Source of the DNA: Woeseiaceae bacterium
GTDB taxonomy: Bacteria; Pseudomonadota; Gammaproteobacteria; Steroidobacterales; Woeseiaceae
Assembly (NCBI GenBank): GCA_041746375.1
Contig: JBGTHC010000045.1
Location: 13,204-77,203, forward strand
Length of the DNA: 64,000 nt
Direction: 5' to 3'
In this document: positions 1,612-64,000 of the stretch, in pieces
How the letters are laid out: every line of letters begins with the position of its first letter
Position numbering within the stretch: position 1 is the stretch's first letter
Translations under genes and position numbers: made by a program
Notes under the pieces: generated by a model
Databases searched by the model: none
What the model was told of the DNA's origin: nothing
What the model saw: the letters and a program-made list of their open reading frames with translations, nothing else

Positions 1612-2772
1612 ATGAATCACTCGTACTTATTCACTTCCGAATCGGTATCGGAAGGACATCCGGACAAGATTGCGGACCAGATTTCCGACGCCGTACTTGA
1701 TGCGATACTCGAGCAGGATACAAGAGCGCGGGTCGCCTGCGAAACGCTGGTGAAGACCGGCATGGTCCTTGTTGCCGGGGAAGTAACGACGTCAGCGTGG
1801 GTCGATATCGAGGCGCTCGTGCGCAAGACCGTACTCGACATCGGCTATTCGGACTCGACCATGGGCTTCGATGGCGCTTCGTGCGCGGTGATCAACGCCC
1901 TGGGCAAGCAGTCGCCGGATATCGCCCGTGGCGTGGATCGCGATGAGCTGGAAAATCAGGGTGCCGGTGATCAGGGGCTCATGTTCGGGTACGCCACCAA
2001 CGAGACGAGCGTACTGATGCCCGCGCCGATCACCTATGCCCACCAGCTGGTAAAGCGCCAGGCCGAAGTCCGGAAATCGGGCAAACTGCCGTGGCTGCGC
2101 CCGGACGCCAAGAGCCAGGTGACTTTTGTTTACGAGAACCACAAACCGGTCGGCATCGATGCCGTGGTCCTTTCTTCGCAGCATCATGCCGACGTCTCCA
2201 TGAATGACCTGCGGGACGGCATCATGGAGGAAGTCATCAAGCCGGTGTTACCGGCCGAATGGATCGGCAAACACACCCGGTACCACATTAACCCGACCGG
2301 TCGCTTCGAGATCGGCGGCCCGATGGGCGATTGCGGCCTTACCGGGCGCAAGATCATCGTCGATACCTACGGCGGCTCTGCACGCCACGGGGGCGGCGCA
2401 TTTTCCGGCAAGGACCCGTCCAAGGTCGATCGCTCAGCAGCCTATGCCTGTCGTTACGTGGCCAAAAACATCGTCGCGGCAGGACTCGCGGACCGCTGCG
2501 AGATTCAGGTTTCTTATGCCATCGGCGTAGCCGAACCCACATCGATCAGTGTCCAGACGTTCGGCACGGGCAAGATCAGCGAAGAGCGCCTGACGGACCT
2601 GATCCGCGAGAATTTCGATTTGCGTCCCTATGGCATTCTGAGAATGCTGGATCTCATTCGACCCATTTACCGGCCAACCGCCGCGTACGGTCATTTCGGT
2701 CGCGAGGATATCGATCTGAGCTGGGAGAGAACCGATAAGGCAGAGGTACTGCGAGTTGACGCTGCTGCATGA
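1612..2772 (+). CDS. metK: S-adenosylmethionine synthetase
   Basis: Track ORF 1531..2772. The conserved start is the internal ATG at 1612 ([26 protein letters not shown]). GHPDK and [16 protein letters not shown] motifs are present. Confidence 0.95.
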
Positions 2773-2815
2773 ACGCACTTACTCACCGGATTGAATTGCT
2801 TTTAAGGAGAATTGT

Positions 2816-44227: not shown

Positions 44228-44256
44228 GGTTCAAGTCCTACCGGGCCCACCATTAC
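44228..44256 (+). repeat. direct repeat copy 2 (orphan tRNA 3'-end fragment, att-like)
   Basis: Identical 29-mer 109 bp downstream of copy 1, with no tRNA 5' half in front of it. On the opposite strand it encodes the last eight codons and the stop of the 1301-aa sensor gene. Confidence 0.95.
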
Positions 44257-47200: not shown

Positions 47201-48136
47201 CGCGTCTCGCTGCGTTGCGTCGGCTCGATTGAGCGCTGTTGCCGTAACCCAGATCATCAGGACAAACGTCGTAACACTGGCGACGACAAGGAGCATCAAA
47301 CCGAGCTCAAAGCCGTACACTCCGGCCTGCTCGCCCTGCAGTGCGAACCAGCCGATCATGACTGGCAGGGCAATTGCCAAAGGCAGCAGTCGACGCGCGA
47401 TTGAGCTGCCGGTGCCCTCGGAAGCGAGGATCCCGAGCGGACTGCGATCCGCTTGTGCACCGAGAATGCCGATCGATACGACGGCAAACAGCACGGCTGT
47501 GTGCAGTGCCATCGTCGACGTCGGCCAGGTCGGATGCAATGCCGGCGCGCCGTAGACGTAGCCGATCACCGTTGTCAGCGAAACTGTGCCGATCACGAGC
47601 GCCAGCAACAGGGAAATCCGGTTGCCGCGGGGCTTGCCGGACGCCTGGCAGAGGAAGGCCGTTGCCAGCACGACGAACGCAACGGCGGTAGCCGGCGACA
47701 TCCGGCCATCAGCCATGTAGTCGGCTGTCGTAGCCGGTTGCTTCAACAGCAGCTCGTCGATGCCCAGCTGGACGCCGAATGCGAACTGCACGCCTGTCAG
47801 GAGACCGACGACAAGCACCGAGACGGCTGCGGCCAATCCCGCCAGCCGCGCAGTCGACCCGTCCTGGCTGGCGCCCAGATGCCACAGGGCCACGCCGCTG
47901 AGAACAAAGCAGAGGGCCGTGTTGACTTTCATCGTGGACCACTGCGGGGCCAGGCTCTTGATGACCTGCAGATCGACCACCCAGGCAGTCAGTACCAGCG
48001 AGCCCCCGATCATCAGCAAGGTCGCGCAAAGCCGGGAAACGGTCAGACGCTCAGACCGGGGGCGCGCTCGATGCCAGGCATCGGGTTTATCGCGAGACAG
48101 CGGCAAAGCCGCTGAAAAGTCGGCACGACTACTCAT
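44231..48136 (-). CDS. multi-pass membrane sensor with PAS/GAF repeats, degenerate GGDEF and intact EAL domain (probable c-di-GMP phosphodiesterase)
   Basis: 1301 aa. About 8 N-terminal TM segments, several PAS regions and a GAF-like region. The GGDEF motif is replaced by GPDSF (IARVGPDSFAV). The EAL domain is intact (FEALMRW, DDFGTGYSSL, KIDRSF). Confidence 0.9.
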   Translation of the reverse strand: MSSRADFSAALPLSRDKPDAWHRARPRSERLTVSRLCATLLMIGGSLVLTAWVVDLQVIKSLAPQWSTMKVNTALCFVLSGVALWHLGASQDGSTARLAGLAAAVSVLVVGLLTGVQFAFGVQLGIDELLLKQPATTADYMADGRMSPATAVAFVVLATAFLCQASGKPRGNRISLLLALVIGTVSLTTVIGYVYGAPALHPTWPTSTMALHTAVLFAVVSIGILGAQADRSPLGILASEGTGSSIARRLLPLAIALPVMIGWFALQGEQAGVYGFELGLMLLVVASVTTFVLMIWVTATALNRADATQRDAVQAIAGEAMRRRVLFEQARDGILIFDADRNIVEANDSFASMLGYSLEEVVQLRPWNWDAKYNTRKLFLDAWPELPTTSGQLETEFRRKQGDIIDTAISYSPAELDGKNYLYCICRDITSRKRNDLALHESQERFRRALANIPDVVVIYDLELRIRFINDATRAVTGLRAADFIGRRDDEIFPPDVHQAYMPTLKKAISSKRICKVDTELTLPGDRQRALRITCVPLLDSRGEVREVLGITHDYTDRKKAEEQFRQSQSQYQELIEQAADGIFICDAEGKFVLVNSRCCELLGYSRDELLSMNGSETCLEEETDMTTRRLAKLSSGQDLRYERMVKRKDGSAFPAEVSVKMLEAGRMQVIFHDITSRRRQEQKIARLSRIHAVLSGINSAIVRIRKRRDLLIEACRIAVTAGNFKIAWIGRVDQATGQMRMLAQSGLPISLDDSEMENGKVVDLVPDGPASFSLQAKRAVYDNDITESVHLSSIRRMAIRLGSKSVISLPLLVEQNLFGVLVLYAPDRNFFDEEELKLLKELAGDISFALDFIAKEEKVDYLAYYDTLTGLPNRKLFFDAFKRQLSAAEREGQKVVLQLLDIDRFRMINETYGRDDADKLISAIAKRIGVATSEQDTIARVGPDSFAVAISGEWQAARTAHALDDLNEQVFGRPFVLQGEDLRVSATSGVAVFPGDGVDSYGLLSNAEAAQRSAEKQNIRFQFYSPEMNERVADSMRLENRLRLALEQDEILMWYQPKTCLRTGALTGFEALMRWRDRESGNMVQPGKFIPIMEQTGLILVAGRRALTKVVDDCCHWKQQQVSVPRVAINVSLMQLREDDFVASIMQAHEQTADAGCALDLELTESVLMENVDSIVPKLQTLHGLGVQIAVDDFGTGYSSLAYISRLPIHALKIDRSFVFGMTQDQNSLTIVRSTISLAHSLGLKVVAEGVETAEQAELLAELQCDEMQGYYLSQPVPPSEVPALIRKLGKQGNGGPGRT

Positions 48137-51961: not shown

Positions 51962-52165
51962 TCAGTCCTTCAGGACAAAAGTGACTTTGAGGGTGACGCG
52001 AAATTCGTCGATTTCGCTGCCCTTCACGGTTACTTTTTGCTCCGAGACCCAGGCGCCCTGCACCTTGTCGACGGTCTTCGCAAAGCGCTTGATCCCTACT
52101 CTTATCGCATCTTCAAAGCTCTTCGTCGACGACGAAGTAATTTCCGATACTTTTGCAACGCTCAT
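51962..52165 (-). CDS. dodecin-family flavin-binding protein
   Basis: Track ORF extends to 52225. ATG 52165 gives the 67-aa MSVAKVSEITSSSTKSFEDAIRVGIKRFAKTVDKVQGAWVSEQKVTVKGSEIDEFRVTLKVTFVLKD, which fits the dodecin pattern. Confidence 0.75.
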   Translation of the reverse strand: MSVAKVSEITSSSTKSFEDAIRVGIKRFAKTVDKVQGAWVSEQKVTVKGSEIDEFRVTLKVTFVLKD

Positions 52166-52291
52166 TGGTTGATCCTCCAGTGTCAATCCCGGATTGCACA
52201 GCGCAATCTGAATTTGAACGTTCAAGGATACAGTGTGGAGGAGCCGGGGAACAACCGGCAGGAGGTGCGTGACAGGACGGTTTGAGTGTCG

Positions 52292-53461
52292 TCAATACCA
52301 GATAGAGAAAAACAGTTGCACGACATCGGCTTCCAGCGCGTAAAGTGGCTCCTCGCCGATCACCGCGTCAGTCCTCAGGTCGCGAAAGTCGTGATAATCC
52401 AGATTCAGGATGTCAATTGAAAATGTCACGGAAGCACGGTCAATGAAACGCCAGCCATTGTTCAGCAACTTGTAGCTTGCCGCCAGTTTCAGTGTCTGGC
52501 TGGTCAGCGGGCTCAATTCCTTGTCCCGGCCACGAAAATTGGTGGCTTCCGTGCGTGAAAAGAGATCCTGGTAGAAATGCGCCCCGGTCTGGTCGTGCCA
52601 GCGGTATTTGACGGTGAACGTCCAGTCATCCATCGGGTGGATATAGGAGATCGACGCCGTGTGCGATTCGATGTCCCAGGTATCCGTAAAATACCGGTAT
52701 TCGGTTTGTACGGCGGCCCGGTATGGCAGGTAATACCTGGCAAGCAGGCCTACCGCGTTACTTGTCCGCGTGTTCGGATAAAGCTCCGGCTCAAAACTGT
52801 AGCCGACCGGACTATCCGGATCTGCATAACGGACTGAGCGATAAGGATTGTTGAGGAAACCTTCGTCAGTGATGGTTTCGATATTCAGAGTCGTGATCAG
52901 ATTGCGTGTCAGAATCTGCGTCAGGCCAATGCCATAGTGCTGCCGGGAATTATCGCGAGCAAACGTTTCATCGTCCGACCGTCGGACTACGTCGTCACCT
53001 AGCCCATAACTCAGCGTCAAGGTTGTAAGGTCACCGAACATGTCCTGGCTGACCGAGAAGTTGTACGTAGTAGCGTCGAAATCGCTCTCAACACTGCTGG
53101 TATAACCTGCGCTCAAGGTGGTATTGCGATGCAGGTAGTCCATTCCCAAAGACCATTGCTTGCGTTCTTCGGTGTAGGGACTGGCGGTTGTAACTACATC
53201 GATTGATGCAGAGGTGACCATATCTACGTAGTAGTTGCCGACGAGCGAGATGTTCCGGGCAACCTGTTTTCTCACCAGGACGGACGGGCCATCGATGGTT
53301 ACGCCGCCACCGTCGTAAAGATGATAGAGAACATCGCTGCGATCGTCCGGAAGCACGCCCGCAACACTGGCGCGCGTCAATGCCAGCAGAATGATGCTCG
53401 CAAAAGCATTACGTATCGATACGGAATTCAAGTACAAGGTCTGCGACAAAGTCTGCTCCAC
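52292..53461 (-). CDS. large outer-membrane beta-barrel protein, DUF3570-like
   Basis: 389 aa. Signal peptide, alternating beta-strand pattern throughout and a C-terminal aromatic beta-signal (LFFSIWY). Size and position 9 nt after a DUF4266 gene fit the usual DUF4266/DUF3570 pairing. Confidence 0.65.
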   Translation of the reverse strand: MEQTLSQTLYLNSVSIRNAFASIILLALTRASVAGVLPDDRSDVLYHLYDGGGVTIDGPSVLVRKQVARNISLVGNYYVDMVTSASIDVVTTASPYTEERKQWSLGMDYLHRNTTLSAGYTSSVESDFDATTYNFSVSQDMFGDLTTLTLSYGLGDDVVRRSDDETFARDNSRQHYGIGLTQILTRNLITTLNIETITDEGFLNNPYRSVRYADPDSPVGYSFEPELYPNTRTSNAVGLLARYYLPYRAAVQTEYRYFTDTWDIESHTASISYIHPMDDWTFTVKYRWHDQTGAHFYQDLFSRTEATNFRGRDKELSPLTSQTLKLAASYKLLNNGWRFIDRASVTFSIDILNLDYHDFRDLRTDAVIGEEPLYALEADVVQLFFSIWY

Positions 53462-53470
53462 GCCTGCAAC

Positions 53471-53707
53471 TCAGTTGCAGCCGCAGCCTCCGCCACCGCT
53501 GCCTTCTCCGCCTCTGGCCCCCTCACGGGCCTCATACACGTGGTACAGATAGGCGCTCGACACCGGGTCACCGTCAAGGAACATAATGGGATCAGCAAGG
53601 CGATCGCGCTCATAGGGCTTCACCCACGGTTCAACACTTCCGCAAGCCGACAACAAACCCAGCATTGCCAGTGAAGCCAGCACTCGTAATAATGATCGTC
53701 CTTTCAT
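53471..53707 (-). CDS. DUF4266 mini-lipoprotein with C-terminal GGGGCGCN
   Basis: 78 aa. Lipobox LLSAC, then PWVKPYERDRLADPIMFLDGDP...YLYHVYEAREGARGGEGSGGGGCGCN. The Gly-rich ...GCGCN terminus is the hallmark of DUF4266 as I recall it. Confidence 0.8.
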   Translation of the reverse strand: MKGRSLLRVLASLAMLGLLSACGSVEPWVKPYERDRLADPIMFLDGDPVSSAYLYHVYEAREGARGGEGSGGGGCGCN

Positions 53708-53766
53708 CGCAACTCTCCTCGCTGGAATTTTGCGCGATTTCCAGCGCAGGAACCGTGACCCCTGCC

Positions 53767-54456
53767 TCAGAAAAACACTGTCAGGCCGAGAACGCCTTCG
53801 AGGTTGTGCACAGTCTTTTCCTCACCGAGCAGATCCGTGTCGAACAGATGATCGCGAACGTCGAGATGCAGAGCGATGGAGTCTGTGAGTAGGAAGCGCA
53901 ATCCGGCACCAAAGTTAACTGTGAAACGGTCGTCGCCAGCGAACGTCGTCGACCCCAACCCGCCTGTTATATAGAGGCTGGTGTTGTAGGCCCGTCCCTC
54001 ACCGATGAATACTTCGCCGGGGAGCAGGTTGTAACCGAGATTCAGGTTGTAATAAGTAAATTGCCGGTCGTCGTCCGAAAGAATTGGCGCCCCACCGCTC
54101 AGTTCCTCAAAGCTTGTCAGGCCGGCTTCGGACTGTCCGATTGTGCCTTCGACAAAGAGCCCTTCAGTAATGTGATACGCAAGGCGCGCGCCGTAGACAA
54201 CATCCGAGCCGAAGTCTTCAATGCTGAGAATGCCGGCGAAGGCACCGATCTCGAAGTTCTCCGTATCAATTTTTGGTTCACGAACCTCACGCCGCTCGAC
54301 TTGTGGATCAATGACCTGCTCGGGTGCAGGCGCCTCGGCGGGGGCCGGAGTCGCTTCATCATCACCCATTCCGAAAAGGTTCTTTGTCGCCGCACAGCCC
54401 GTCAGGCACAACGCAACCGGCAGTACTAGAAAAAGAACGCGAAACCGACTTTCCAT
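53767..54456 (-). CDS. outer-membrane beta-barrel lipoprotein
   Basis: 229 aa. Lipobox LTGC, a Pro/Ala-rich linker, then amphipathic beta strands ending LGLTVFF (C-terminal Phe beta-signal). Overlaps the upstream gene by 31 nt. Confidence 0.7.
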   Translation of the reverse strand: MESRFRVLFLVLPVALCLTGCAATKNLFGMGDDEATPAPAEAPAPEQVIDPQVERREVREPKIDTENFEIGAFAGILSIEDFGSDVVYGARLAYHITEGLFVEGTIGQSEAGLTSFEELSGGAPILSDDDRQFTYYNLNLGYNLLPGEVFIGEGRAYNTSLYITGGLGSTTFAGDDRFTVNFGAGLRFLLTDSIALHLDVRDHLFDTDLLGEEKTVHNLEGVLGLTVFF

Positions 54457-55229
54457 TCTTCTACTTCCTCGTTGTCATCACGACTCGTAAACACTACGTA
54501 GCTTTTGTACTCTGCTCTCAGGATAAAGCGCCGAGTCGCGTATATGCGTAGACCTGCACCAACATGGCCAACCTGGTCGGTTCGATCCTCGCCCTGCACT
54601 ATCGTCGATTTCGGTTTGGTGTGAATCACCCCTGAGCCCAGCGTGAAGAAAGGCGAAATGCGCCATTCGGGCCATGTTTCGTGGACGACGTTAACACTGC
54701 CCATCCAGCCGTTCGAAAAATTTCCCAGAATCTGTGAACCCCATGCCTCAAAAGAGATATTCGGGTTGAGCGAGTACCTGCCATACAGAGAAATGATATT
54801 GGCGCCGCCGAAGTCACCAGCCATTACACCCGCCTCCCAGCGCGATTCCAAAAGATCGTCATGGCCGGCGGCGGCGAACTCGACGTTGGCGCCATCGGGC
54901 TTCAGTGTAAGTTCCAGTTGTGCGCGGTCAACCCAGCCTTCGGCGCCCCCAGGGTCGCGAACGAGGAACCAGTCGGTGCGCTGCTTGATGATCTCCACGG
55001 TCTCACCGCGGTCCACCACATGAAATTTCGGATAGCCCCGGCCTGGACCCGTATGCATTTCCAGATAGGGGTCTGCGACCGCAACTGTGAGATATCGGTC
55101 CGCGGCCGTGGCATGTCCGACAGCGAGCATCTGGCTCAAAACAATGAGCGAGAGTGCCAGGGTTGCTGACAGAGATCCCCTAGTTGATCGGGACGTCGAA
55201 TGGATTGTTGTAATATTGTGCACCGACAT
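54426..55229 (-). CDS. SH3-domain plus outer-membrane beta-barrel protein
   Basis: 267 aa. Signal peptide, a bacterial SH3-like segment (LEMHTGPGRGYPKFHVVDRGETVEIIKQRTDWFLVRDPGGAEGWVDRAQL), then a beta-barrel ending KVGFAFFF. Overlaps the upstream gene by 50 nt. Confidence 0.7.
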   Translation of the reverse strand: MSVHNITTIHSTSRSTRGSLSATLALSLIVLSQMLAVGHATAADRYLTVAVADPYLEMHTGPGRGYPKFHVVDRGETVEIIKQRTDWFLVRDPGGAEGWVDRAQLELTLKPDGANVEFAAAGHDDLLESRWEAGVMAGDFGGANIISLYGRYSLNPNISFEAWGSQILGNFSNGWMGSVNVVHETWPEWRISPFFTLGSGVIHTKPKSTIVQGEDRTDQVGHVGAGLRIYATRRFILRAEYKSYVVFTSRDDNEEVEEWKVGFAFFF

Positions 55230-57861
55230 CCAGCCATTCGGCGATCAGGCGTTTTTCTGCAGGCGACAAATAGCCGTCATGGCTCTGGCCCGCATCGAAA
55301 CGATCAAAAAATCGACCGGACGCGATAGCGCCGGCGACACTCATTGAAGGGTTAACAGTAACGGTGGCAAAGATCGGATCTCCCGTATCCGGATCGGTGC
55401 CAACCTGCACCAGTACGTCCTGCAGCGCGCCCATGTTGAGTTCCTGTTCGTTATCCGGGAACAGCAGCTCACGATACGAATTGAAATGTTCCGCCTGGTC
55501 GGCCGATGGTCCGTCGGACAAATCCAGCTGTGACGCCGGTACTCGCACCTGCATCTGGTCGTCCACCGGGCTATGGCAGTTGACGCAGTCATTGGTAACA
55601 GGATTACCCATCCCGTCCAGCACCGGATTCATATCGTCGTCCAGCACGGGTCGTGAAGCCGACCATAATGGATGAATATGCGTCTCGTAATTGATGACGA
55701 TGCGGCAGGTTGAGGACCACTGTTGCATGCAATTGACGTTGGTCGGAGGCGCGGTGGTCAGTGCCGCGTAGGCGTAGGCAAAGCTCTCATCCCTTGGCCG
55801 ACCCGCAGCGACCTCATCGGTCCACACGTCCTCAAACACGATATCGACCGATGGATCGATTGATGCGCAGGTCGTATCGTCGCAACTGATGCGTGCGCGA
55901 ACTTCGGCCATCGTTTCACCTATCTCGCCGACAAACAGCGCCGGATCGGTATTCGGGAACTCAACGCCTGCCATTGCGGCACCCGCCCAGGCAGACTCGA
56001 ACGCGTCGCCACGGCCATGGGACAGACCGCTTTGGGCTTCGTGGCAGCCGTTGCACTGCAGCAGTTGGCCCGCCCGAACCTGTAACCAGTTCTGGTGTCG
56101 TTGCGTTATGCGGCGGCCATTGCTGTCTAGCACACTGACAGCCAGTGCCACATTGGCCGGCACCTTGACCATAACCGAACCGTCCGGTTCGATCGGCGCA
56201 TAACCGATGATCTCTTTCATGCCCTGCTGTGTGCTGCGACCGAAAGCGGTATTGTCCAGATCAACGATTTCTTCATCGGGAATCGACACTGCCTTGACAA
56301 TGCGCAAGAACCTGGCCGGCCTCTGATCCGCCGTGGTCTGCCCCGGATCGGCCAGCGCCTCGATATCGGCCACAGCCCCGCCGTCAAAATCGTAGACACT
56401 GCGGATATTGATCACACCTGCGCCTTCGGCAACAAGATTTGGGTCGGCGAGGAAATTATCAGCGCCATCCAGTATGACCGGAGGAATCGGCCTGGGGTCG
56501 GCAGAAACCACTTCCGTGAACATAAATCCTTCGACGGGCGGCACAACCGGCAGCTGGGTATCGTCTCGCGGGTCGTAAATCCAGATGCCATAAATCGGCG
56601 GCGATTCCTCAACCTGCGGATCGGCGAGTCGCTCGTCCGTGCACGGCACGTTAAGCGTGTCCTCGACGACACGACACTGGCTCCAGCTCACCAGCATCCT
56701 GCCGGTGCCATCCTGGATCGGGAACACGGAACGGTAACGCCCGCCACGAGACGGTACACCGGCTTCCGTGGAAACCTCGTTGACCGTGGCAGCTTCCTGT
56801 GCCGGCCCGGTCAGTCCGGCGTTGTCCTTGTTGGCTTGCACATTTTCCAGATATGCCGGTACATCGATGACAGTCAGGTCGCCGCCACCGTTCGTATCAG
56901 TATATGGCCGCGTTAGCGCCAGCACGCGTCCATCTTCGAGTTCGCGCGGCTGCAGGAACTGAATTGTCTCGCCATTCGTACCGGTGTCGTGGCTGTTCTG
57001 GCCATAAAGCAATTCAAGATTCGAACCGTCCGGGTTCATCCGATAGAGATTCACGGCATCGTTTACGCCCATGTGATCCCAGCGGCTAAATACGACTCTG
57101 CCGTCCGCCAGGACCGACGGATCGAAGTCGTGGCTTTGGTTATACGAGACCTGCTCGATGTTCGAGCCACCGGCATCCATGGCATGCAAGACGAAGGCCG
57201 GTTCATTCTGGTCCTCGTCCATAGCGGCGAACTGCGGCTTGCCTTCATCCAGCAGTATCGCGCTCGACCGCACCTGGCGCGTCGACGAAAAAATTATGCG
57301 GCCATCCGGCAGATAGTGAGGCGCAATATCGTGCCCGATTTCAGCGGTCAGGTTGGATGCAATGACGCGACGCAGTGTTTCTGATTCGAATTCGTATTCC
57401 CAGATGTTCCAGGTCGGCTGGTCTTCATCGTCAAGGTCCAGATTCTCGATTGCCGGGCCTCGCATGGCGAAAAGCAGTTTGCTGCCGTCAAATGCGATCT
57501 CGACATCTCTTACGTCACCAAGTCCGTTCGTAACGCTTTCAGTAATGTTGACGTCCAGTGCACTGGGGGACGCCCGGTCACGGAAAAACAGGTCTGCGCC
57601 GATATTGAATGTAATGAGCTCCCGCAGGTCGGTTTGCTCCGTCATGCCCAGGTCATCGACCGGCAAAGGCGCCCTGATGTAAGCGATCGGGAAATCAATG
57701 ACGACCGGGTCCGTATCCTGCCCTGTGCCGATGCTGACGCCATCACCGCTTCCACCGCAGCCGGCCAGCCCAAGCATAGCCGACAGCAATAGCGCGCCCT
57801 GCGCTACCGCGTTCCGTGTTTCAGCACCATTGCATTGCGACGCCGTGTTCATAAATGCCAC
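55180..57861 (-). CDS. lipoprotein with TolB-like beta-propeller, HzsA-like middle region and two c-type haem sites
   Basis: 893 aa; GTG 57861 or ATG 57852. Lipobox LAGC and repeated propeller blades (FDGSKLLFAMRG, LPDGRIIFSSTR, LADGRVVFSRWDH, NPDGSNLELLYG, LEDGRVLALTR). ...IEPDGSVMVKVPANVALAVSVLDSNGRRITQRHQNWLQVRAGQLLQCNGCHE is followed by a second CxxCH (CVNCH). Confidence 0.75.
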   Translation of the reverse strand: MAFMNTASQCNGAETRNAVAQGALLLSAMLGLAGCGGSGDGVSIGTGQDTDPVVIDFPIAYIRAPLPVDDLGMTEQTDLRELITFNIGADLFFRDRASPSALDVNITESVTNGLGDVRDVEIAFDGSKLLFAMRGPAIENLDLDDEDQPTWNIWEYEFESETLRRVIASNLTAEIGHDIAPHYLPDGRIIFSSTRQVRSSAILLDEGKPQFAAMDEDQNEPAFVLHAMDAGGSNIEQVSYNQSHDFDPSVLADGRVVFSRWDHMGVNDAVNLYRMNPDGSNLELLYGQNSHDTGTNGETIQFLQPRELEDGRVLALTRPYTDTNGGGDLTVIDVPAYLENVQANKDNAGLTGPAQEAATVNEVSTEAGVPSRGGRYRSVFPIQDGTGRMLVSWSQCRVVEDTLNVPCTDERLADPQVEESPPIYGIWIYDPRDDTQLPVVPPVEGFMFTEVVSADPRPIPPVILDGADNFLADPNLVAEGAGVINIRSVYDFDGGAVADIEALADPGQTTADQRPARFLRIVKAVSIPDEEIVDLDNTAFGRSTQQGMKEIIGYAPIEPDGSVMVKVPANVALAVSVLDSNGRRITQRHQNWLQVRAGQLLQCNGCHEAQSGLSHGRGDAFESAWAGAAMAGVEFPNTDPALFVGEIGETMAEVRARISCDDTTCASIDPSVDIVFEDVWTDEVAAGRPRDESFAYAYAALTTAPPTNVNCMQQWSSTCRIVINYETHIHPLWSASRPVLDDDMNPVLDGMGNPVTNDCVNCHSPVDDQMQVRVPASQLDLSDGPSADQAEHFNSYRELLFPDNEQELNMGALQDVLVQVGTDPDTGDPIFATVTVNPSMSVAGAIASGRFFDRFDAGQSHDGYLSPAEKRLIAEWLDVGAQYYNNPFDVPIN

Positions 57862-57897
57862 CTTCGATACCTGATGTAATGATTTGTGCGCGCGATT

Positions 57898-57915
57898 CGC
57901 ACGAACTTGCGTGCG
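57898..57915. promoter_or_regulatory. 18-bp palindrome at the 5' end of the minus-strand operon
   Basis: CGCACG-AACTTG-CGTGCG, perfect 6-bp arms. It lies 37 bp upstream of the GTG of the propeller-haem gene and at the predicted transcription start of the candidate sigma-54 promoter. Confidence 0.3.
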
Positions 57916-57922
57916 TAGCTCT

Positions 57923-57939
57923 ATGCAATATTCAGACCA
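57923..57939 (-). promoter_or_regulatory. candidate sigma-54 promoter for the minus-strand operon
   Basis: The minus strand reads TGGTCTGAATATTGCAT. The invariant GG and GC dinucleotides have the correct 12-nt register of TGGCACG-N4-TTGCW, but the -24 element is imperfect. Confidence 0.3.
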
Positions 57940-58255
57940 TTCCTATTTCGTCGGAAACGATCGAACGGAGCAAAGTAAAATCACCGTCAGGCGGACCGCC
58001 ATAGTGGACGCGAAGCACCCCCTGTACCGTTAACGCGATCACAAAGATCTGCGAGGGCCTCACGCCGGAATCTGTGTTCTGCCGCTGTTACGGTTACCTT
58101 AGCTTCCGATCCGCAATCAGCAAGTGCGCTCTGCGGCGCATTGCACGAACGATAAAGCGCGGACGTTGTATCCCGTTTCTCTGTTGCCGCAATCGCACCA
58201 TCACAGTAGCTGCCGCGGTTTCAATGTTGTTTTGCCGCGAATCCTTGTCGTGAAC

Positions 58256-58288
58256 GGACACTGTTGTCGGTGTGCGGCGACAGTCTCC
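58256..58288. promoter_or_regulatory. 33-bp imperfect palindrome, candidate enhancer-binding-protein site
   Basis: GGACACTGT-15 nt-ACAGTCTCC, 8 of 9 arm positions complementary. Its centre is about 180 bp upstream of the plus-strand -24 element, and an AT-rich stretch (about 58387..58425) lies between them. Confidence 0.3.
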
Positions 58289-58450
58289 GGGCGTTGTGAA
58301 TCAGCGGCTTAGACCAGCGTTTGACTTTGTCTTGTGCGGAACGAACGACAATGGCTTGACATATCGTTGCGCGCGCCGGGACGTCGATAATTTTTGTAAT
58401 CGCCTGTTTCCTAACATTTAAATAGCAGCAAGTTGGGCAACGCCGCACAT

Positions 58451-58466
58451 TGGCACAGGCCTTGCT
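58451..58466 (+). promoter_or_regulatory. sigma-54 (RpoN) promoter for the plus-strand haem/LamG/Tat operon
   Basis: TGGCACAGGCCTTGCT, that is TGGCAC-N5-TTGC, an essentially consensus -24/-12 element. The predicted start is near 58477. Confidence 0.6.
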
Positions 58467-58476
58467 ATGTATACCT

Positions 58477-58871
58477 CAGCTAGACAGTTACGGAGTAAGG
58501 CGCGAGTTCGAGAAAGTGTCGCTAAACAGGTGGAGTGTGAATGCATTCACGGCCTGATTACGACGATCAGGGCATAGTCTTTTCTGGAACGTCCGCCTGT
58601 TCGTTCGGCAATTTGTGCGTCGTTAAGACGCGGCAAACCTTAAGGACTTCTGAAAAGGGCAAGGCTTCCGTCAGCAGAACCGACGGTGGCCACGCAAAGC
58701 AACCGATCCGGAAAGTAGCCTTACCGCTACGTTCACGCGACAGCGGGGCCGCCAGGAGTACGTGAGTGACAGGGCTTCATCTCCCTGCTTCGCTCTTGGA
58801 AAAGCCGGAGTCCCTTACCTGTCAGCTGTAGTTCACGATGTTGAGTCGTACTGGTAACGAGCAGGGATGTT
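58477..58871 (+). other. long (about 395 nt) 5' leader with several hairpins; possible cis-regulatory RNA
   Basis: No convincing ORF. Contains the perfect palindrome GTGAATGCATTCAC (58537..58550) and hairpins CCTGAT/ATCAGG, GUAGC/GCUAC and CAGGG/CCCUG. Also carries the sequence islands GGCAAACC, ACGCAAAGC and CAGCGGGG. Confidence 0.35.
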
Positions 58872-60086
58872 ATGAAAGACAGGACGAGGAAAGGTAGTTT
58901 GGGTGCCGGTCATCGCACATTTGTTGCGGGGCTCACTCAATTGTTTGCTGTTGGCATTCTGTCTGCTGCGCTAGCACTGCCTGCAACCGCGGGCCCGAGA
59001 GAGCAGGCGAAGCGCATCCATGATCGACTTGCCGGCGTCCCGCCGTCAGCCTCGGTTCTTGACACTATGGAAGCGGAAGTCGATCCGTTCCGGGCAGGTA
59101 CCGCTCTGGATGCCGCCTTCACGGCGATGGAAAATCCCAATTTCTATAACGTAACCCTGAAGAATTTTGCCGCGCCATGGACCAACCGCGAGCGCAGTGT
59201 TTTCGTTCCGCTGAACGATTACATCGCAACGGTTGTCGGCATGATTCGTGACGACGTGCCGTTCAATACGCTGCTTTCTGCCGATCTCGTTTACGTCGGC
59301 AACGGCAGCCTCGGATTGCCGCCCTACTCCAGCAGCAACAACAATCACTACGCAGAGATGGAGCAACGCCAGATCGACATGATGAGCGAACTTTCGCCGA
59401 CGGCGCAGTCGGCGGTAAGCGGCCTGCCTTCAAATGCGACCGCAGGCGTGATGACCACCCGCGCGGCTGCCGAAGCGTTTTTTGTTGCCGGCACCAACCG
59501 CGCAATGTTTCGCTTCACGTTGCTGAACCACATGTGCAACGACCTGGAGCAGGTTCACGACGTCAATCTGCCGCCGGATCGCATTCGCCAGGATGTCGCC
59601 CGCAGCCCGGGTGGTGACAGTCGACTGTTCCTGAATAATTGCATCGGCTGCCACAACGGCATGGATCCGCTTGCGCAGGCCTTCGCCTACTACAATTTTA
59701 ACGTCGACACAGGCAGCATCGAGTACACACCGGGCCAGGTGCAACCCAAGTATTTCAATAACGAAGACAACTTTCCGTTCGGCTTTCGTACACCGGATGA
59801 CCGCTGGGACAACTACTGGCGCGCCGGGCAGAACCAGTTTCTTGGCTGGGATAACAGCCTGCCCGGCAGTGGCTCCGGCGCGAAATCACTTGGCGACGAA
59901 CTGGGCAACAGTGCCGCGTTCGCCAGCTGCCAGGTCCGCAAAGTTTTTCAAGCCGTTTGTCTGAGACCGCCGCAAGATGCCGCAGATCGGACCCAGGTAG
60001 ATCAGATGGTCATGTCCTTCACGTCCTCAGGCTATCTCATGAAGCAGGTCTTCGCTGAAACTGCCGTCTATTGCATGGGCGACTAG
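58872..60086 (+). CDS. exported monohaem c-type protein, PSCyt/PSD (DUF1588/DUF1585)-like
   Basis: 404 aa. Signal peptide (...ALALPATAGP) and a single CxxCH in NNCIGCHNGMDPLAQAFAYYNF. This resembles the C..CH..MDP.G junction of the planctomycete-type cytochrome/PSD families, recalled from memory. Confidence 0.6.
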   Translation: MKDRTRKGSLGAGHRTFVAGLTQLFAVGILSAALALPATAGPREQAKRIHDRLAGVPPSASVLDTMEAEVDPFRAGTALDAAFTAMENPNFYNVTLKNFAAPWTNRERSVFVPLNDYIATVVGMIRDDVPFNTLLSADLVYVGNGSLGLPPYSSSNNNHYAEMEQRQIDMMSELSPTAQSAVSGLPSNATAGVMTTRAAAEAFFVAGTNRAMFRFTLLNHMCNDLEQVHDVNLPPDRIRQDVARSPGGDSRLFLNNCIGCHNGMDPLAQAFAYYNFNVDTGSIEYTPGQVQPKYFNNEDNFPFGFRTPDDRWDNYWRAGQNQFLGWDNSLPGSGSGAKSLGDELGNSAAFASCQVRKVFQAVCLRPPQDAADRTQVDQMVMSFTSSGYLMKQVFAETAVYCMGD

Positions 60087-60090
60087 GAAG

Positions 60091-62610
60091 ATGGCGTCGA
60101 TGATTCGTACAAAAGGAACTGTTATGACCGACCTCATCGAGAGTGGTCGCAAAGGTGTAATACGCGCAGGCCTGGCCGGTGCATTGTGCATTGCGTTGCT
60201 CGGCGGCTGCGGCGGCGGCGCACAGACGACGGACAACCCTGTAACAGGCGTGACGCCTCCGTCATCCTATTCAGGTCCACCGCCGGCTACCGACGACGTG
60301 CAATCGTTCAAATTGAACGTTTGGGACAACATCCAGGCCAGCAATCGTTGCGGCGGCTGCCACAACGACTCGACCAGCCAAACGCCGATGTTTGCCCGCC
60401 ACGATGACATCAATCTTGCATACGAGGCTGCCAACACGGTTGCCAACCTGTCGCAACCGTCGGACTCCAGGCTGGTTTCCAAGGTCGGCACCGGCCACAA
60501 CTGCTGGTTGAGCGACAGTCAGGCTTGCGCGGATATCATGACTACGTGGATCGAAGGCTGGGCCGGCGATGCGGCCGGCGGCGGACGCCAGATCGTGCTT
60601 GAACCACCGGTTGCGAGCGCTCCAGGATCCAGCAAGAGCTATGCAAATGCCACGGAAGCCAATTTCGCGGCACTGGTCCATGGCCCGCTACTGACGACCT
60701 ATTGCGCCGGATGCCATACCTCGCAGTCGCCGAATTCACAACAACCCTATTTTGCTGAAGATGATGTATCCGTCGCTTACGACGCGGCGAAGCCGAGGAT
60801 GGCCCTCGATTCACCGGTTGATTCGCGATTCGTCGTGCGCCTTGGCAGCGAATTCCATAACTGCTGGGACGACAGCTGCTCGGCTTCTGCTGCGGAAATG
60901 CAGGCAGCAATCCAGGCTTTCGCGGACACCGTTCCGTTGACGGAAATCAATCCTTTGCTGGTCAACAGCAACGCCCTGCGTATAGTCGATGGCGTCGTCG
61001 CGTCGGGCGGCAATCGCTATGAAGGCGCGCAGATCGCCTTGTGGGAGTTCAAAACCGGCCAGGGCGCGACCGCGTTCGATACCAGCGGTGTTGAACCGGC
61101 AATAAATCTGACGCTGTCAGGCAACTATGAATGGTTCGGCGGCTGGGGCGTTACCATCAACGACGGCAAAGCACAGGGCACGACGTCCGCCAGCAAGAAG
61201 CTGCATGACCTCATTCGCGGCACTGGTGAGTACACGATCGAAGCGTGGGTGGTGCCGGCGAATGTATCCCAGGAGATGGCACGCATAGTCAGTTATTCCG
61301 CTGGCGACGACGCACGCAACTTTACCTTGCAGCAGACTCTGTACGACTACAATTTCCTGCATCGCAGCACCGAGACGAGCCTCAACGGTGATCCCGCACT
61401 ATCGACGCCCTCTGCTGCAGAGGTCCTGCAGGCTGCACTGCAACATGTGGTTGCAACTTACAGTCCCGTCGATGGACGCAGGATCTATGTCAACGGCGAG
61501 CTTGTCACGCAGGCAGACCCGGTAGCCGGCGGCTCCCTGGTCGACTGGCAGGACACGTTTGCCTTCGTCCTCGGCAACGAAGTTTCGAGCTCGGGCCTGT
61601 GGCAAGGTACCTTCCGCCTGGTTGCGATGCATAACCGCGTCCTGACTCCCGAACAGATCCTGCAGAATTTCGATGTTGGTGTCGGTGAGAAGTTCTACCT
61701 GTTGTTCGGCATCGAAGACATTATCAACGTGCCGACCGCTTACATCCTTTTCGAGGTCGCGCAGTTCGACAGCTACGGCTATCTGTTTACGCAGCCGCAC
61801 TTCATAACCCTCGACTCGACACAACAGCCTGACGGTATACCGTTGCAGGGCTTGCGCATCGGCATCAACGGAGCGGAAGCGCCGGTGGGTCAGTCCTATG
61901 CCAATATGGACCAGACCCTCAGTTATTCCCAGTTTGGTGAACTCGGTCAGCCGCTCGCTGAAATCGGCGCTGTGGTACCGCTGGAGAAGGGTCCGCAGGA
62001 TGACGAGTTCTTCCTGACCTTTGACTTGCTGGGACAACAGACCTACGCACGCACCGACAATCCGCCGCTGGTCATCACCCCAACCGATCTGCCACCGGCG
62101 TCCCGTTTTGGAGTAAGGACCTTCGACGAGATCAATGCCACCATGGCGGCGGTGACCACGGTCGATCCGGCACAGACAGACGTCGACCTCACCTACCAGA
62201 GTCTGCGCCAGTCATTGCCGACTATTGAAAGCCCGGAGGCATTCCTCGCTTCTCACCAGGTCGCGATCGCACAGCTCGCCATCGAATACTGCAACGTGCT
62301 GATCGAGGATCCGGCGATGGCAGCCGCGTACTTTCCCGGCTTTGATTTCAACCAGGCAGCCGCTGCCGCATTTGCCGGGGCCAATCGCGATCTGATTCTC
62401 GAACCACTGATCGACAGGATGATGGGCTTTGGCATCCAGACACAACCGGACTACGCCGATGTGCGCAATGAACTCGGCTACGTCACGTCCGACGGCACGC
62501 GGCCCGACAACCTGATAGATCGCCTTTTGAGCAGCGGCGCGGCAACGCGATCGATCTCCAAAGGTGTATGCGCAGCCGTTCTCGGCAGCGCTGTGACACT
62601 CGTACAGTAG
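60091..62610 (+). CDS. lipoprotein with two tandem monohaem modules, a LamG (concanavalin-like) domain and a helical C-terminal region
   Basis: 839 aa; the alternative ATG 60124 has a better ribosome-binding site. Lipobox LLGGC, with haem sites CGGCH and CAGCH in two similar modules each ending ...HNCW. The LamG pattern is EYTIEAWVVPANVS...HVVATYSPVDGRRIYVNGELV...FVLGNE...GTFRLVAMHNRVLTPEQI. Confidence 0.75.
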   Translation: MASMIRTKGTVMTDLIESGRKGVIRAGLAGALCIALLGGCGGGAQTTDNPVTGVTPPSSYSGPPPATDDVQSFKLNVWDNIQASNRCGGCHNDSTSQTPMFARHDDINLAYEAANTVANLSQPSDSRLVSKVGTGHNCWLSDSQACADIMTTWIEGWAGDAAGGGRQIVLEPPVASAPGSSKSYANATEANFAALVHGPLLTTYCAGCHTSQSPNSQQPYFAEDDVSVAYDAAKPRMALDSPVDSRFVVRLGSEFHNCWDDSCSASAAEMQAAIQAFADTVPLTEINPLLVNSNALRIVDGVVASGGNRYEGAQIALWEFKTGQGATAFDTSGVEPAINLTLSGNYEWFGGWGVTINDGKAQGTTSASKKLHDLIRGTGEYTIEAWVVPANVSQEMARIVSYSAGDDARNFTLQQTLYDYNFLHRSTETSLNGDPALSTPSAAEVLQAALQHVVATYSPVDGRRIYVNGELVTQADPVAGGSLVDWQDTFAFVLGNEVSSSGLWQGTFRLVAMHNRVLTPEQILQNFDVGVGEKFYLLFGIEDIINVPTAYILFEVAQFDSYGYLFTQPHFITLDSTQQPDGIPLQGLRIGINGAEAPVGQSYANMDQTLSYSQFGELGQPLAEIGAVVPLEKGPQDDEFFLTFDLLGQQTYARTDNPPLVITPTDLPPASRFGVRTFDEINATMAAVTTVDPAQTDVDLTYQSLRQSLPTIESPEAFLASHQVAIAQLAIEYCNVLIEDPAMAAAYFPGFDFNQAAAAAFAGANRDLILEPLIDRMMGFGIQTQPDYADVRNELGYVTSDGTRPDNLIDRLLSSGAATRSISKGVCAAVLGSAVTLVQ

Positions 62611-62642
62611 TTCGATTACGCAAACGGAATGAGGCAAGAGTA

Positions 62643-64000
62643 ATGTCCAGGAAAAGCAAACGTGCCCGGTTCGACTCACCGCAACGCCACGGGGACCATC
62701 CGCGGCCGGTGACCCGGCGTCAATTCGTCGCACAGGGATTTCTGGGCGGCTCGGCTTTCCTGGCAGGCGGCGGCGTAATGAGCCTGTTCACGAACCCGCG
62801 CCAGGCATTCGCGGAGCTTTCGGGCGATCTGCAGCCCCTGCTCAGCAATCCGTGCAACGTCGCAACGGAAGGAGCCGGCAAGATCCCGTTTATCTGTTTT
62901 GACCTGTCGGGCGGAGCCAGCATTGCCGGTTCCAATGTCCTGGTCGGCAAGGAAGGCGGGCAACTCGATTTCCTGGGCACGGCCGGCTACCAGAAACTGG
63001 GCTTGCCCGGCGATATGGTGCCGAGCTTGAACGACCCGATCTCCGGCCTGCCCTTCACCAATAGCGATTTCGGGCTGGCGTTTCACTCCGACAGCGCCTT
63101 CCTGCGCGGCATACTGCGCAGCATGGCGCCGACTCGCGCGGCCAACCTGAACGGCGCCGTCATCCCGGCACGTTCGGAGAATGACACCGGCAACAATCCG
63201 CACAATCCGTTGTACGGCATTGCGACCGCGGGTGCGGACGGCTCGATCGTCACGTTGGCCGGCTCCGAGAATACGGATTCAGGCGGCAATTCAATGATTC
63301 CGTCGATGATGATGAACCCGGAGTTGCGGCCAACCAAGGTGGACCAGCCGCGGGATGTGACGGGCCTGGTGGATACCGGCGACCTGGTGGGGATTCTTCA
63401 GCCAGAAGAAGCCACCGCGGTCCTGGAATCCATATACCGCATCAGCGACCGCAAGATGAGTGTTGGCGAAACCGGCCAGACGATAACGTCCGACGACGTC
63501 GTCAAGGACATGGTGCGCTGCGGCTACCTGAAATCGGCCGACATTGCCGACCGCTTTGGCGGCGTCCCGCTCGATCCAAGCGAAGATCCGATGATTGTCG
63601 GACCGGGCGGCATATTTACCGAAGCCGAGTTCAATGCCAACGATACCGACGGTCGCGAATTCCGCAAAACGGCATCCGTCATGAAACTGGTGATGAACGG
63701 TTTCGCCGGTGCCGCCTGCATTGAAATGGGCGGCTACGACTACCACGGCGGTCAGCGACGTGAAGGCGAAGTGAAGGACGAACGTGCCGGGCGCTGCATG
63801 GGCGCCTGCCTGGAGTATGCCGCACGCATCGGTGTACCCCTGATGATGTACGTCTTCAGCGACGGATCGCTGTCCAGCAATGGTGTCATCGACAACTCGC
63901 CGGAAGGTCGCGGCAAGGGTGAATGGGTCAGTGACGATTCGTCGACGGCCGCGTCGTTTTTCCTGGTCTACAACCCCAACGGTCGGCCGGCGCTGCGCGG
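62643..64000 (+). CDS. Tat-exported DUF1501-like protein (alkaline-phosphatase/sulfatase superfamily-like), 3' end beyond the window
   Basis: Absent from the ORF track because it is open at the right edge. Manual translation from ATG 62643 gives MSRKSKRARFDSPQRHGDHPRPVTRRQFVAQGFLGGSAFLAGGG (twin-arginine motif) ...FICFDLSGGAS...IEMGGYDYHGG..., compared with the GGWDTH signature of DUF1501. The frame stays open for 452 codons. Confidence 0.65.
   Translation, partial: MSRKSKRARFDSPQRHGDHPRPVTRRQFVAQGFLGGSAFLAGGGVMSLFTNPRQAFAELSGDLQPLLSNPCNVATEGAGKIPFICFDLSGGASIAGSNVLVGKEGGQLDFLGTAGYQKLGLPGDMVPSLNDPISGLPFTNSDFGLAFHSDSAFLRGILRSMAPTRAANLNGAVIPARSENDTGNNPHNPLYGIATAGADGSIVTLAGSENTDSGGNSMIPSMMMNPELRPTKVDQPRDVTGLVDTGDLVGILQPEEATAVLESIYRISDRKMSVGETGQTITSDDVVKDMVRCGYLKSADIADRFGGVPLDPSEDPMIVGPGGIFTEAEFNANDTDGREFRKTASVMKLVMNGFAGAACIEMGGYDYHGGQRREGEVKDERAGRCMGACLEYAARIGVPLMMYVFSDGSLSSNGVIDNSPEGRGKGEWVSDDSSTAASFFLVYNPNGRPALR

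Follow-up and report, generated by a model that had tools for sequence, protein, structure and literature searches.

A co-inherited eight-gene envelope locus of Woeseiaceae that may encode an outer-membrane-anchored thiol, flavin and haem electron-transfer module

The sequence considered in this work is a stretch of 64,000 nucleotides from a marine-sediment Woeseiaceae bacterium (contig JBGTHC010000045.1), which we will refer to as the window, and our subject is a cluster of eight genes at its end that is organized as two divergent operons. The minus-strand operon is comprised of m1 (55180–57861), coding for a lipoprotein of 893 aa that combines a beta-propeller with a middle domain of the HZS_alpha type and has two sites for c-type haem; m2 (54426–55229), for a Sec-exported protein of 267 aa in which an SH3 domain is fused to a small outer-membrane beta-barrel with a C-terminal F; m3 (53767–54456), for a small outer-membrane beta-barrel lipoprotein of 229 aa, of the OMP_myx_plus type and also ending in F; m4 (53471–53707), for a DUF4266 mini-lipoprotein of 78 aa whose Gly-rich tail ends in Cys-Gly-Cys-Asn; and m5 (52292–53461), for a DUF3570 protein of 389 aa that is predicted to form a 16-strand outer-membrane beta-barrel. 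On the plus strand, p1 (58872–60086) encodes a Sec-exported monohaem protein remotely like PSCyt3/PSD2 (DUF1588/DUF1585), p2 (60091–62610) a lipoprotein with two cytochrome c modules, a LamG domain and about 300 C-terminal residues without any family match, and p3 (62643–64000) a protein without family match that is exported by the twin-arginine translocation (Tat) pathway, of which 452 of about 541 aa are present before the window ends.

A preliminary description of this sequence had listed five minus-strand and three plus-strand genes, and the open reading frame (ORF) map agrees with it to the base, with overlaps of 50 and 31 nt and gaps of 59 and 9 nt in the minus operon (the last of these between m4 and m5) and gaps of 4 and 32 nt in the plus operon. 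Its account of the export signals, haem motifs and C-terminal residues is likewise borne out by the translations. All eight carry an export signal, viz. lipoboxes in m1 (LAGC), m3 (LTGC), m4 (LSAC) and p2 (LGGC), Sec-type signals in m2, m5 and p1, and the twin-arginine motif TRRQFV in p3. There are five CxxCH sites on three proteins (two in m1, one in p1 and two in p2), and three of the proteins have aromatic C-terminal ends (FFF, VFF and IWY). The residue at position +2 is Gly or Ala, and never Asp, in all four lipoproteins, which suggests that m1, m3, m4 and p2 are probably anchored in the outer membrane.

The conservation of this locus was examined in two samples. The close sample consisted of 80 species-representative genomes, all of them Woeseiaceae-like, with m1 proteins 59–93% identical to that of the window; the closest of these loci (L004), from a Woeseiaceae metagenome-assembled genome, shows 93% protein identity. 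The best homologues of the window proteins carry the annotation Woeseiaceae or Woeseia, and exact look-ups in public assemblies returned no match for p2 and a single contig, of 6 kb, for m3. The distant sample consisted of 80 metagenome loci that were retrieved through distant relatives of m1 (37–62% identical). In the 80 Woeseiaceae loci the order p3-p2-p1/m1-m2-m3-m4-m5 was kept in every contig of sufficient length. As the neighbouring LemA and MOSC genes are also syntenic within Woeseiaceae, this observation alone proves little. However, in the distant loci the LemA, MOSC and dodecin flanks are gone, LemA and MOSC being retained only within Woeseiaceae, and all eight genes are again present, in unchanged order and orientation, in every contig that is long enough. 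Because the flanks change while the eight genes stay together, the two operons form one unit, and the co-occurrence of the two halves that had been proposed for checking extends far beyond the family level. The haem-binding motifs, whose conservation in homologues had likewise been put up for checking, are also retained, with one CxxCH in 137/137 p1 orthologues, two in 105/105 p2 orthologues and two in 154 of the 164 m1 orthologues.

A few loci add to this picture. In close relatives with complete chromosomes the same layout extends over nine genes, as it includes a fourth plus-strand gene, which lies past the end of the window and codes for an S-adenosylmethionine (SAM)-dependent methyltransferase with a PqqD-like end. 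This protein (CARME-like, 460 aa, with a weak PqqD-like C-terminal match; 2180–3571 on the minus strand of locus L002, and its equivalents) follows p3 in Woeseiaceae and in the distant loci L130, L134, L135, L137, L141 and L154, and it may be a ninth member of the module. In locus L051, on a contig of a metagenome-assembled genome (JADFSP010000016.1, 8300–14438), m1-m2-m3 lie between the methyltransferase and LemA, and neither p1–p3 nor m4–m5 were detected there by tblastn; this pattern represents either a joint loss of p1–p3 and m4–m5 or an assembly artefact.

The proteins m4 and m5 connect the locus to a system that has been described earlier. They match the Pfam families DUF4266 (8.8e-22) and DUF3570 (6.8e-38), respectively; the C-terminus GCGCN is present in 119 of 126 m4 orthologues, and the C-terminal residue of the m5 orthologues is Y or F. 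In m5 the tandem motif D-M-V-T-S-A-S86-I-D-V-V-T-T-A-S94 is located on the loop between strands 3 and 4. Among the m5 orthologues this motif is mostly SSAS/TTAS, its Ala-Ser and the flanking Asp are invariant, and Gly is found in only a few. For a DUF3570 protein of Chlorobium, it has been reported that ApbE flavinylates two serines in tandem [S/T]GA[S/T] motifs, that several hundred gene clusters combine ApbE, DUF3570, a thioredoxin-like protein and DUF4266, and that the terminal CXC of DUF4266 is proposed to be redox-active (Meheust et al., eLife 2021; PMC8238504). The published description assigns no function to this system and does not describe DUF3570 as an outer-membrane barrel. Thus, of the earlier statement that every recognisable family at the locus is of unknown function, it still holds that none of the proteins belongs to a family with an assigned pathway, while for DUF3570 the statement is out of date. 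Flavinylation of m5 in this organism is assumed here by analogy with the Chlorobium protein.

The AlphaFold2 model of m5, obtained from an alignment of 121 sequences (predicted local distance difference test score, pLDDT, 86.7; predicted template modelling score, pTM, 0.80), is a 16-strand barrel, and its Foldseek matches are the solved outer-membrane barrels PelB, OprD/Occ, AlgE and PgaA (E about 1e-8), in keeping with the large barrel recognised in the preliminary description. When strands are counted from the N-terminus of this predicted model, short turns of 2–7 residues join them on the side where the termini lie, and the long connections, viz. residues 85–95, 201–230, 292–318 and 361–372, lie on the opposite side. 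Both of the candidate flavinylation serines are on the connection 85–95. Most of the family-invariant residues of m5 are found outside the strands, in the loops 85–95, 201–230 and 292–318. In ordinary porins the extracellular loops are the most variable parts of the protein, and the conservation of these loops in m5, as placed by the model, suggests that they probably fold into the barrel and form a cofactor site.

The two remaining barrels of the minus operon are small. The protein m2 matches SH3_3 (3.4e-10), TIGR04565 (6.8e-8) and, weakly, OMP_b-brl (0.0011), and m3 matches TIGR04565 (5.8e-49) and OMP_b-brl (2.5e-9). A terminal F is present in 140/145 m2 and 127/128 m3 orthologues.

When the ORFs flanking the module in the distant loci were clustered, four additional genes were seen to recur. 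Two of them code for secreted proteins, viz. a thioredoxin resembling TlpA/ResA and a family-less protein of 188 aa, and the other two for ApbE (281 bits in Pfam) and for a TPR protein of 632 aa. Between m3 and m4 a TlpA-like gene is present in 49 of the 53 non-Woeseiaceae loci, and ApbE is present in the flanks of 11 of the 14 distant loci that have two long flanks. Since both ApbE and TlpA are part of the module in relatives, the haem half and the flavin/thiol half are tied by more than mere adjacency.

Between the divergent operons several candidate regulatory elements are present upstream of the plus operon. A sigma-54 (−24/−12) element of the form TGGCAC-N5-TTGCT (TGGCACaggccTTGCT, 58451–58466, plus strand) is the only exact match in the window to the GG-N10-GC consensus (TGGCAC-N5-TTGCW), and an element facing p1 was recovered from each of the 69 Woeseiaceae intergenic regions searched for it. 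It was found in none of about 60 non-Woeseiaceae intergenic regions and never facing m1. Hence, of the proposal that the whole cluster is sigma-54-linked, the element itself stands, and the link is limited to the plus operon and to Woeseiaceae. No enhancer-binding protein was detected among the 19 window ORFs scanned with Pfam or as a recurrent family in the flanks, and one may be encoded elsewhere; a search of the intergenic region for a sigma-70-type promoter gave no match. A weak Rfam match to narK RNA (58452–58522, plus strand; 17.3 bits, E 0.7) was rejected, as its aligned start is the sigma-54 −24/−12 consensus and not an RNA.

A CRP-type palindrome of the form TGTGA-N6-TCAC(A/G) (TGTGAATGCATTCACG, 58536–58551, unstranded) also lies between the operons. 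The sequence TGTGA-N6-TCACA, with at most one mismatch, was present in 64 of 70 Woeseiaceae and 31 of 59 other intergenic regions, as compared with 1 and 0, respectively, after shuffling. The FNR and Fur boxes were not enriched in these regions. In most Woeseiaceae the palindrome is found at a fixed 72–75 nt downstream of the sigma-54 element, and in the window and its closest relatives at about 85 nt. As the spacer of the palindrome varies without compensation, binding of a protein is a likelier role for this candidate element than formation of an RNA stem, and the element could indicate a second promoter immediately upstream of the leader element described next.

The leader of p1 contains a putative riboswitch aptamer of the cyclic di-GMP (c-di-GMP)-I (GEMM-I) type (58640–58765, plus strand), with extended hairpins and no GNRA tetraloop. 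It resembles the GEMM-I families (Rfam clan CL00126) in its two-hairpin architecture and in the core GGCAA..., ACGCAAAGC and CAGCGGGGC, and it differs from them in its lengthened hairpins, the loss of the GNRA tetraloop and its score, as the Rfam RF03167 match at 58649–58757 reaches 31.8 bits (E 1e-5) and lies below the gathering threshold of 59. In thirteen related leaders the core elements GAAAAGGGCAAGG, ACGCAAAGC and ACAGCGGGGC are invariant, and the tips of the hairpins are variable, with compensating changes. A covariance model built from these leaders located the element in the p1 leader of about 20 Woeseiaceae loci; in other lineages it was found directly upstream of a second tlpA-like gene beside the module. 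There are seven such riboswitches, at L134 1675–1755, L154 1716–1796, L131 2014–2094, L137 1690–1770, L141 17987–18085, L119 9484–9580 and L090 16776–16887. Six of them score 68–73 bits, above the Rfam gathering threshold, the seventh (L137) being found by the covariance model only. The gene downstream of all seven codes for a secreted TlpA/ResA-like thioredoxin, which is followed, where the contig extends, by the genes for the 188-aa secreted protein and the 632-aa TPR protein. In a 28-sequence alignment of the aptamer, which was fitted to the model and hence favours the structure, 93.6% of the cells pair, as compared with 35–54% in slid controls, and 15 pairs have changed on both sides; the observed values were reached by 0 of 500 shuffles. 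The p1 leader gave no sign of an intrinsic terminator; the scan returned a single terminator-like match, on the minus strand and within chance expectation. A 74-codon ORF (58541–58765) overlaps the riboswitch and has no family match, and it was not considered to be a gene. Two large c-di-GMP turnover proteins of the PAS-(GAF)-GGDEF-EAL type are encoded elsewhere in the window (44231–48136 and 15722–18067, both on the minus strand); the first of these genes lies about 4 kb beyond m5 and may bear on the c-di-GMP-type leader of p1.

All parts of the locus are exported, three kinds of redox carrier are combined with a barrel, and relatives add ApbE and thiol accessory genes. On these grounds the region can be read as the Woeseiaceae form of a widespread eight-gene, outer-membrane-anchored thiol/flavin/haem electron-transfer module, a reading to which we give roughly even chances of being correct. 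The redox centres of such a module would be of three kinds, viz. five c-type haems (two on m1, one on p1 and two on p2), covalent flavin mononucleotide (FMN) on m5 and the Cys-X-Cys at the flexible end of m4. Reducing equivalents could travel from the inner to the outer membrane by two routes, one through a DsbD-type protein and TlpA to the CXC tail of m4, the other through periplasmic c-type cytochromes, and the haem groups carried by the lipoproteins of the outer membrane would then hand the electrons on to the two FMN of m5. These FMN would be carried on loop L2 of m5, which together with the likewise conserved loops L5 and L7 may fold into the barrel or cap it on the side facing away from the periplasm, so that the flavin-filled barrel would bring a redox centre to the cell surface or close to it. 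The substrate-facing end would be formed by the plus-operon proteins, i.e. the monohaem p1, the dihaem LamG lipoprotein p2 and p3, possibly of alkaline-phosphatase fold, and the small barrels m2 and m3 would anchor the complex, m2 by means of its SH3 domain. Expression would be linked to a surface-attached state signalled by c-di-GMP, as control by a riboswitch of this class suggests use in the attached state.

A number of observations weigh against this electron-transfer reading. Neither tlpA nor apbE was found within 10 kb of 41 of the 42 Woeseiaceae loci, a single outlier excepted, or in the 64-kb window (apbE by tblastn), and no DsbD-type gene was seen beside any locus. As both tlpA and apbE are present in relatives, the form in the window is therefore a stripped-down version of a larger module with a flavin transferase and thiol reductants; Woeseiaceae would have lost the in-cluster copies, and copies elsewhere in the genome would be needed. 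Further, the motif of m5 ([ST]-S-A-S/T-T-A-S) differs from the published [ST]-G-A-[ST]. The putatively flavinylated loop was assigned to the outer face or the lumen by counting strands in a model that is itself a prediction. The module is also carried by contigs from soil, freshwater and open ocean, which indicates no single insoluble acceptor. Two other points count against this reading and, like the range of habitats, against a more specific form of the idea, namely a trans-outer-membrane conduit in which the 16-strand DUF3570 barrel, with two flavins on inward-folded loops, would be fed by the CXC tail and the haem lipoproteins and switched on by c-di-GMP in attached cells. The five haems are distributed over three separate proteins and are too few for a membrane span like that of MtrA, and the LamG domain, the SH3 domain and p3 are left unexplained and have no role in a conduit. 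We regard the conduit as possible but doubtful.

The plus-operon proteins bear on a different explanation, in which the locus codes for an enzyme machine of the envelope. Its substrate would be a complex organic compound from the matrix or from detritus, for instance a glycan or a polymer with phospho- or sulfo-esters, which would be bound and chemically converted without any electrons leaving the cell; LamG and SH3 would bind the ligand, p3 would be a hydrolase or transferase, and the haems, flavins and thiols would do no more than supply or remove electrons for this conversion. A ligand-binding role fits with p2, where the LamG domain (Laminin_G_3, 2.5e-20) is present in 31/31 orthologues, and with the SH3_3 domain of m2. 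The cytochrome module of p2, CxxCH ... GHNCW ... C, occurs twice, with the invariant residues C87/C90/H91, H136/C138/C146, C205/C208/H209 and H256/C258/C263, and 22 of the 31 orthologues have a Cytochrome_CBB3 match. The resemblance of p1 to PSCyt/PSD proteins points in the same direction, as in Verrucomicrobia such proteins often carry carbohydrate-binding modules and are encoded near sulfatases (PMC5615132). In the window copy of p1 the PSD2 match is weak (0.0063; 16.7 bits against a Pfam cut-off of 25.8); among 48 p1 orthologues PSD2 was matched by 29 (best 1.1e-6), PSCyt3 by 12, PSCyt2 by 8 and DUF1800 by 2, and the recurrence of these weak matches supports a remote relationship to the PSCyt/PSD proteins. 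A c-di-GMP riboswitch together with a CRP-type site would also fit control by matrix state or carbon status.

The enzymatic reading assigns catalysis to p3, which is the most conserved member of the module (orthologues are 73–96% identical within Woeseiaceae and 49–72% in the distant loci). The top 50 Foldseek matches of p3 all belong to the alkaline-phosphatase superfamily of hydrolases or transferases, but they are non-significant (best E 0.12) and the AlphaFold2 model is poor (pLDDT 53.5, pTM 0.64); this weak fold signal would agree with a DUF1501-like fold but does not count as evidence for one, and may be taken as a hint only. The window fragment and two full-length orthologues gave no Pfam match at E≤10, 23 diverse orthologues gave no match at E≤1 to DUF1501, DUF1552, sulfatase, phosphatase or any other Pfam family, and there was no match in NCBIfam. 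The searches of the eight proteins thus recovered HZS_alpha, PD40, SH3_3, DUF4266, DUF3570 and Laminin_G_3, which had been listed for checking, but not DUF1501 for p3, and the earlier label "DUF1501-like", for which there remain the Tat signal, the PSCyt/PSD-like neighbour and non-significant fold matches, is not borne out by the profile searches. Against sequences of the Protein Data Bank (PDB), p1, p2 and p3 as single sequences, and p3 also as a profile, gave matches at chance level only. In addition, the genes that recur beside the module include no glycoside hydrolase, transporter or TonB receptor, and the constant presence of a putatively flavin-bearing outer-membrane barrel is left unexplained by an enzyme machine, which we consider rather unlikely.

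Two observations on p3 may be noted here. Its N-terminus ahead of the twin-arginine motif (62643–62730) is unusually conserved, with H16, D18, H19, P22 and T24 retained in Woeseiaceae and H19, P22, R25 and R26 across all orthologues; in this respect it recalls Tat signal peptides for which cofactor-containing enzymes have dedicated chaperones. Further, the p3 orthologues P0152, P0193 and P0208 are labelled "general secretion pathway protein GspF" in some public records, which, in view of the Tat signal and the lack of any family match, looks like a propagated misannotation.

The thiol components of the module could also serve reductive metal handling at the outer membrane, i.e. Fe(III) or Cu(II) reduction for uptake, copper delivery, or the reduction of metal-site cysteines, with the C-terminal CXC of DUF4266 as metal ligand and TlpA as its reductant. 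The thioredoxins within the module match the ResA/TlpA/DsbE families, which act on cysteines that bind metals or haem, and in copper chaperones Cu(I) is bound by terminal CXC motifs. However, the recurrent flanking genes include neither a metal transporter nor a TonB-dependent receptor, and the lack of enrichment of the Fur box in the intergenic regions noted above also speaks against this explanation, which appears to us quite improbable.

Another explanation centres on m1, a distant full-length homologue, as judged from sequence comparison, of the alpha subunit of hydrazine synthase (HZS). The protein matches Pfam HZS_alpha (PF18582; 4.7e-15, 56.3 bits against a gathering threshold of 26.6) and also PD40, and it gives three collinear matches to PDB 5c2v_A (E 1.5e-8), which span the propeller, the middle domain including the first haem site, and the C-terminus. 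In m1, as in HZS alpha of Kuenenia stuttgartiensis (PDB 5C2V), a beta-propeller is followed by the HZS_alpha domain, where the first CxxCH is located, and then by a C-terminal domain that contains the second; the C-terminal motif can also be aligned between the two proteins. In an exhaustive search, with clustering at 50% identity, the m1 family was found to comprise 4220 clusters when the cut-off was set at E≤1e-3 and 621 when it was lowered to E≤1e-30; both CxxCH and the C-terminal GAQYYNNPFD are present in almost every one of 150 m1 representatives (50% clustering). Unlike HZS alpha, m1 is a lipoprotein, has no beta/gamma partner gene and has no equivalent of Tyr591. Where 5c2v_A has CSGCHYGS-----YRGR, m1 has CNGCHEAQSGLSHGR, without a Tyr four residues after the His of the first CxxCH; the region of the Tyr591 haem ligand thus reads CNGCHEAQSGLSHGR in m1 as opposed to CSGCHYGSYRGR in HZS alpha. 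Genes for HZS beta or gamma subunits were not found beside m1 in the window or in the 160 related loci, where the neighbours of m1 are always p1 and m2, and the score of m1 for the NCBIfam model hydrazine_alpha, 62.5 bits, is far below the equivalog cut-off of 800. In view of this low score, the absence of adjacent beta/gamma genes and the lack of conservation of the Tyr ligand, we have rejected the possibility that m1 is a hydrazine synthase.

These same differences bear on the broader possibility that m1 is a catalytic subunit acting on small nitrogen or oxygen species (nitric oxide, hydroxylamine or peroxide), with the other proteins as its electron partners. The collinearity with HZS alpha and an invariant His-Gly located 8 residues past the first CxxCH would be in accordance with such a role. 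Against it, in addition to the missing partner genes, the altered Tyr591 region and the low equivalog score, are the HZS-alpha homologues known outside anammox bacteria, which lack key residues and include no member of known function (PMC12758564); those homologues were chosen for their co-location with beta-gamma homologues, and m1 has no such neighbour. A catalytic role of this kind is very unlikely. Lastly, the suggestion that the two operons are functionally unrelated neighbours sharing an inherited position, for which one may cite the synteny of LemA, DUF2207 and MOSC genes within Woeseiaceae and the fact that the sigma-54 promoter and riboswitch serve the plus operon only, is extremely improbable given that the 80 distant loci keep the eight genes in order and orientation while the flanks change and that L051, the sole locus without p1–p3, is also without m4–m5.

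Among known systems, the locus is closest to the ApbE/DsbD-TlpA/DUF4266/DUF3570 system (PMC8238504), with which it shares two adjacent genes, one for DUF3570, where the motif Ser/Thr-x-Ala-Ser is doubled, and one for DUF4266, which terminates in CXC, and, in relatives of the window locus, a TlpA-like thioredoxin and ApbE in or beside the operon. It differs from that system in that the pair is here always found within a larger unit, which includes the HZS-alpha-like dihaem lipoprotein, two small barrels, two cytochromes and the Tat protein, that the glycine of the motif is replaced (SSAS/TTAS), and that the Woeseiaceae form has no tlpA or apbE nearby and no DsbD was seen. The preliminary description had proposed an undescribed envelope redox system; the export signals, the retained haem motifs and the co-conservation favour an envelope redox system, but since DUF4266 and DUF3570 are already part of an ApbE/thioredoxin-linked system, it would belong with the ApbE-linked extracytosolic electron-transfer systems and is not wholly undescribed.

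A second likeness is to the PSCyt/PSD + DUF1501 (or DUF1800 + DUF1501) gene pairs of Planctomycetota, Verrucomicrobiota and others, which also combine an exported monohaem protein and a Tat protein in one operon, and a LamG-carrying cytochrome is typical of PSCyt proteins (PMC5615132). Here, in contrast, p3 has no DUF1501 match, the cytochrome gene p2 lies between the two members of the pair, the genes are locked to a flavin/thiol outer-membrane module and the hosts are Gammaproteobacteria. With the porin-cytochrome conduits (MtrCAB and Geobacter Pcc) the locus shares an outer-membrane barrel and lipoprotein cytochromes. However, there are 1–2 haems per protein in place of 8–12 and 16 strands in place of 20–26, the redox centres of the barrel would, by analogy, be covalent flavins, and there is no sequence relationship. 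The exoelectrogenesis genes of Geobacter are regulated by riboswitches of the GEMM-I class, a control similar to that proposed for the module.

The DUF3570/DUF4266/TlpA/ApbE core, the HZS_alpha homologues, the PSCyt/PSD proteins and the GEMM-I riboswitches are thus already known singly, and no paper joining them was found in our literature searches. The terms HZS_alpha, PF18582, Woeseia and PF14086 did not occur in those parts of the text of the supplements of Meheust et al. (eLife 2021) that were covered, and searches for DUF1800 with DUF1501, for a c-di-GMP riboswitch with thioredoxin or ApbE, and for c-di-GMP-I-GGC returned nothing that bears on the module. What is new is the constant union of these parts in one module, the family-less and very conserved Tat protein, the regulatory elements and, as predicted by the model, the assignment of DUF3570 to the outer-membrane barrels, the sites of its modification being located on a conserved loop.

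In marine sediments Woeseiaceae rank among the most abundant bacteria. Homologues of the module number in the thousands in public metagenomes, as the clusters of the m1 family alone illustrate, and one co-inherited unit now links DUF3570, DUF4266, non-anammox HZS_alpha proteins, PSCyt/PSD-like cytochromes and a family-less Tat protein, which until now had been treated apart; in most lineages ApbE and TlpA-type thioredoxins are added as accessories. The sigma-54 promoter, the CRP-type site and the c-di-GMP-class riboswitch provide candidate regulatory handles, and the putatively flavin-bearing outer-membrane barrel provides a structural hypothesis. As cultured carriers exist, viz. Lentisalinibacter orientalis YNA5901 (L083), in which the whole locus is present, and Woeseia oceani, in which at least the p3 orthologue P0152 is present, these questions can be taken to the bench. 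If the barrel does bring flavins to the surface, it would represent a new route of extracellular electron transfer in Gram-negative bacteria; a conduit of this kind would be unrelated to Mtr/Pcc and widespread in Woeseiaceae and other Gammaproteobacteria, and for the first time PSCyt/PSD-type cytochromes and their Tat-exported partners would be placed in a functional context.

A gene for a dodecin, a small flavin-binding and storage protein, is located directly downstream of the DUF3570 gene m5 (51962–52225, minus strand), a curious place, beside the gene of a putative flavoprotein. It is found beside m5 only in the closest relatives (L001, L004 and L005) and probably lies outside the module.

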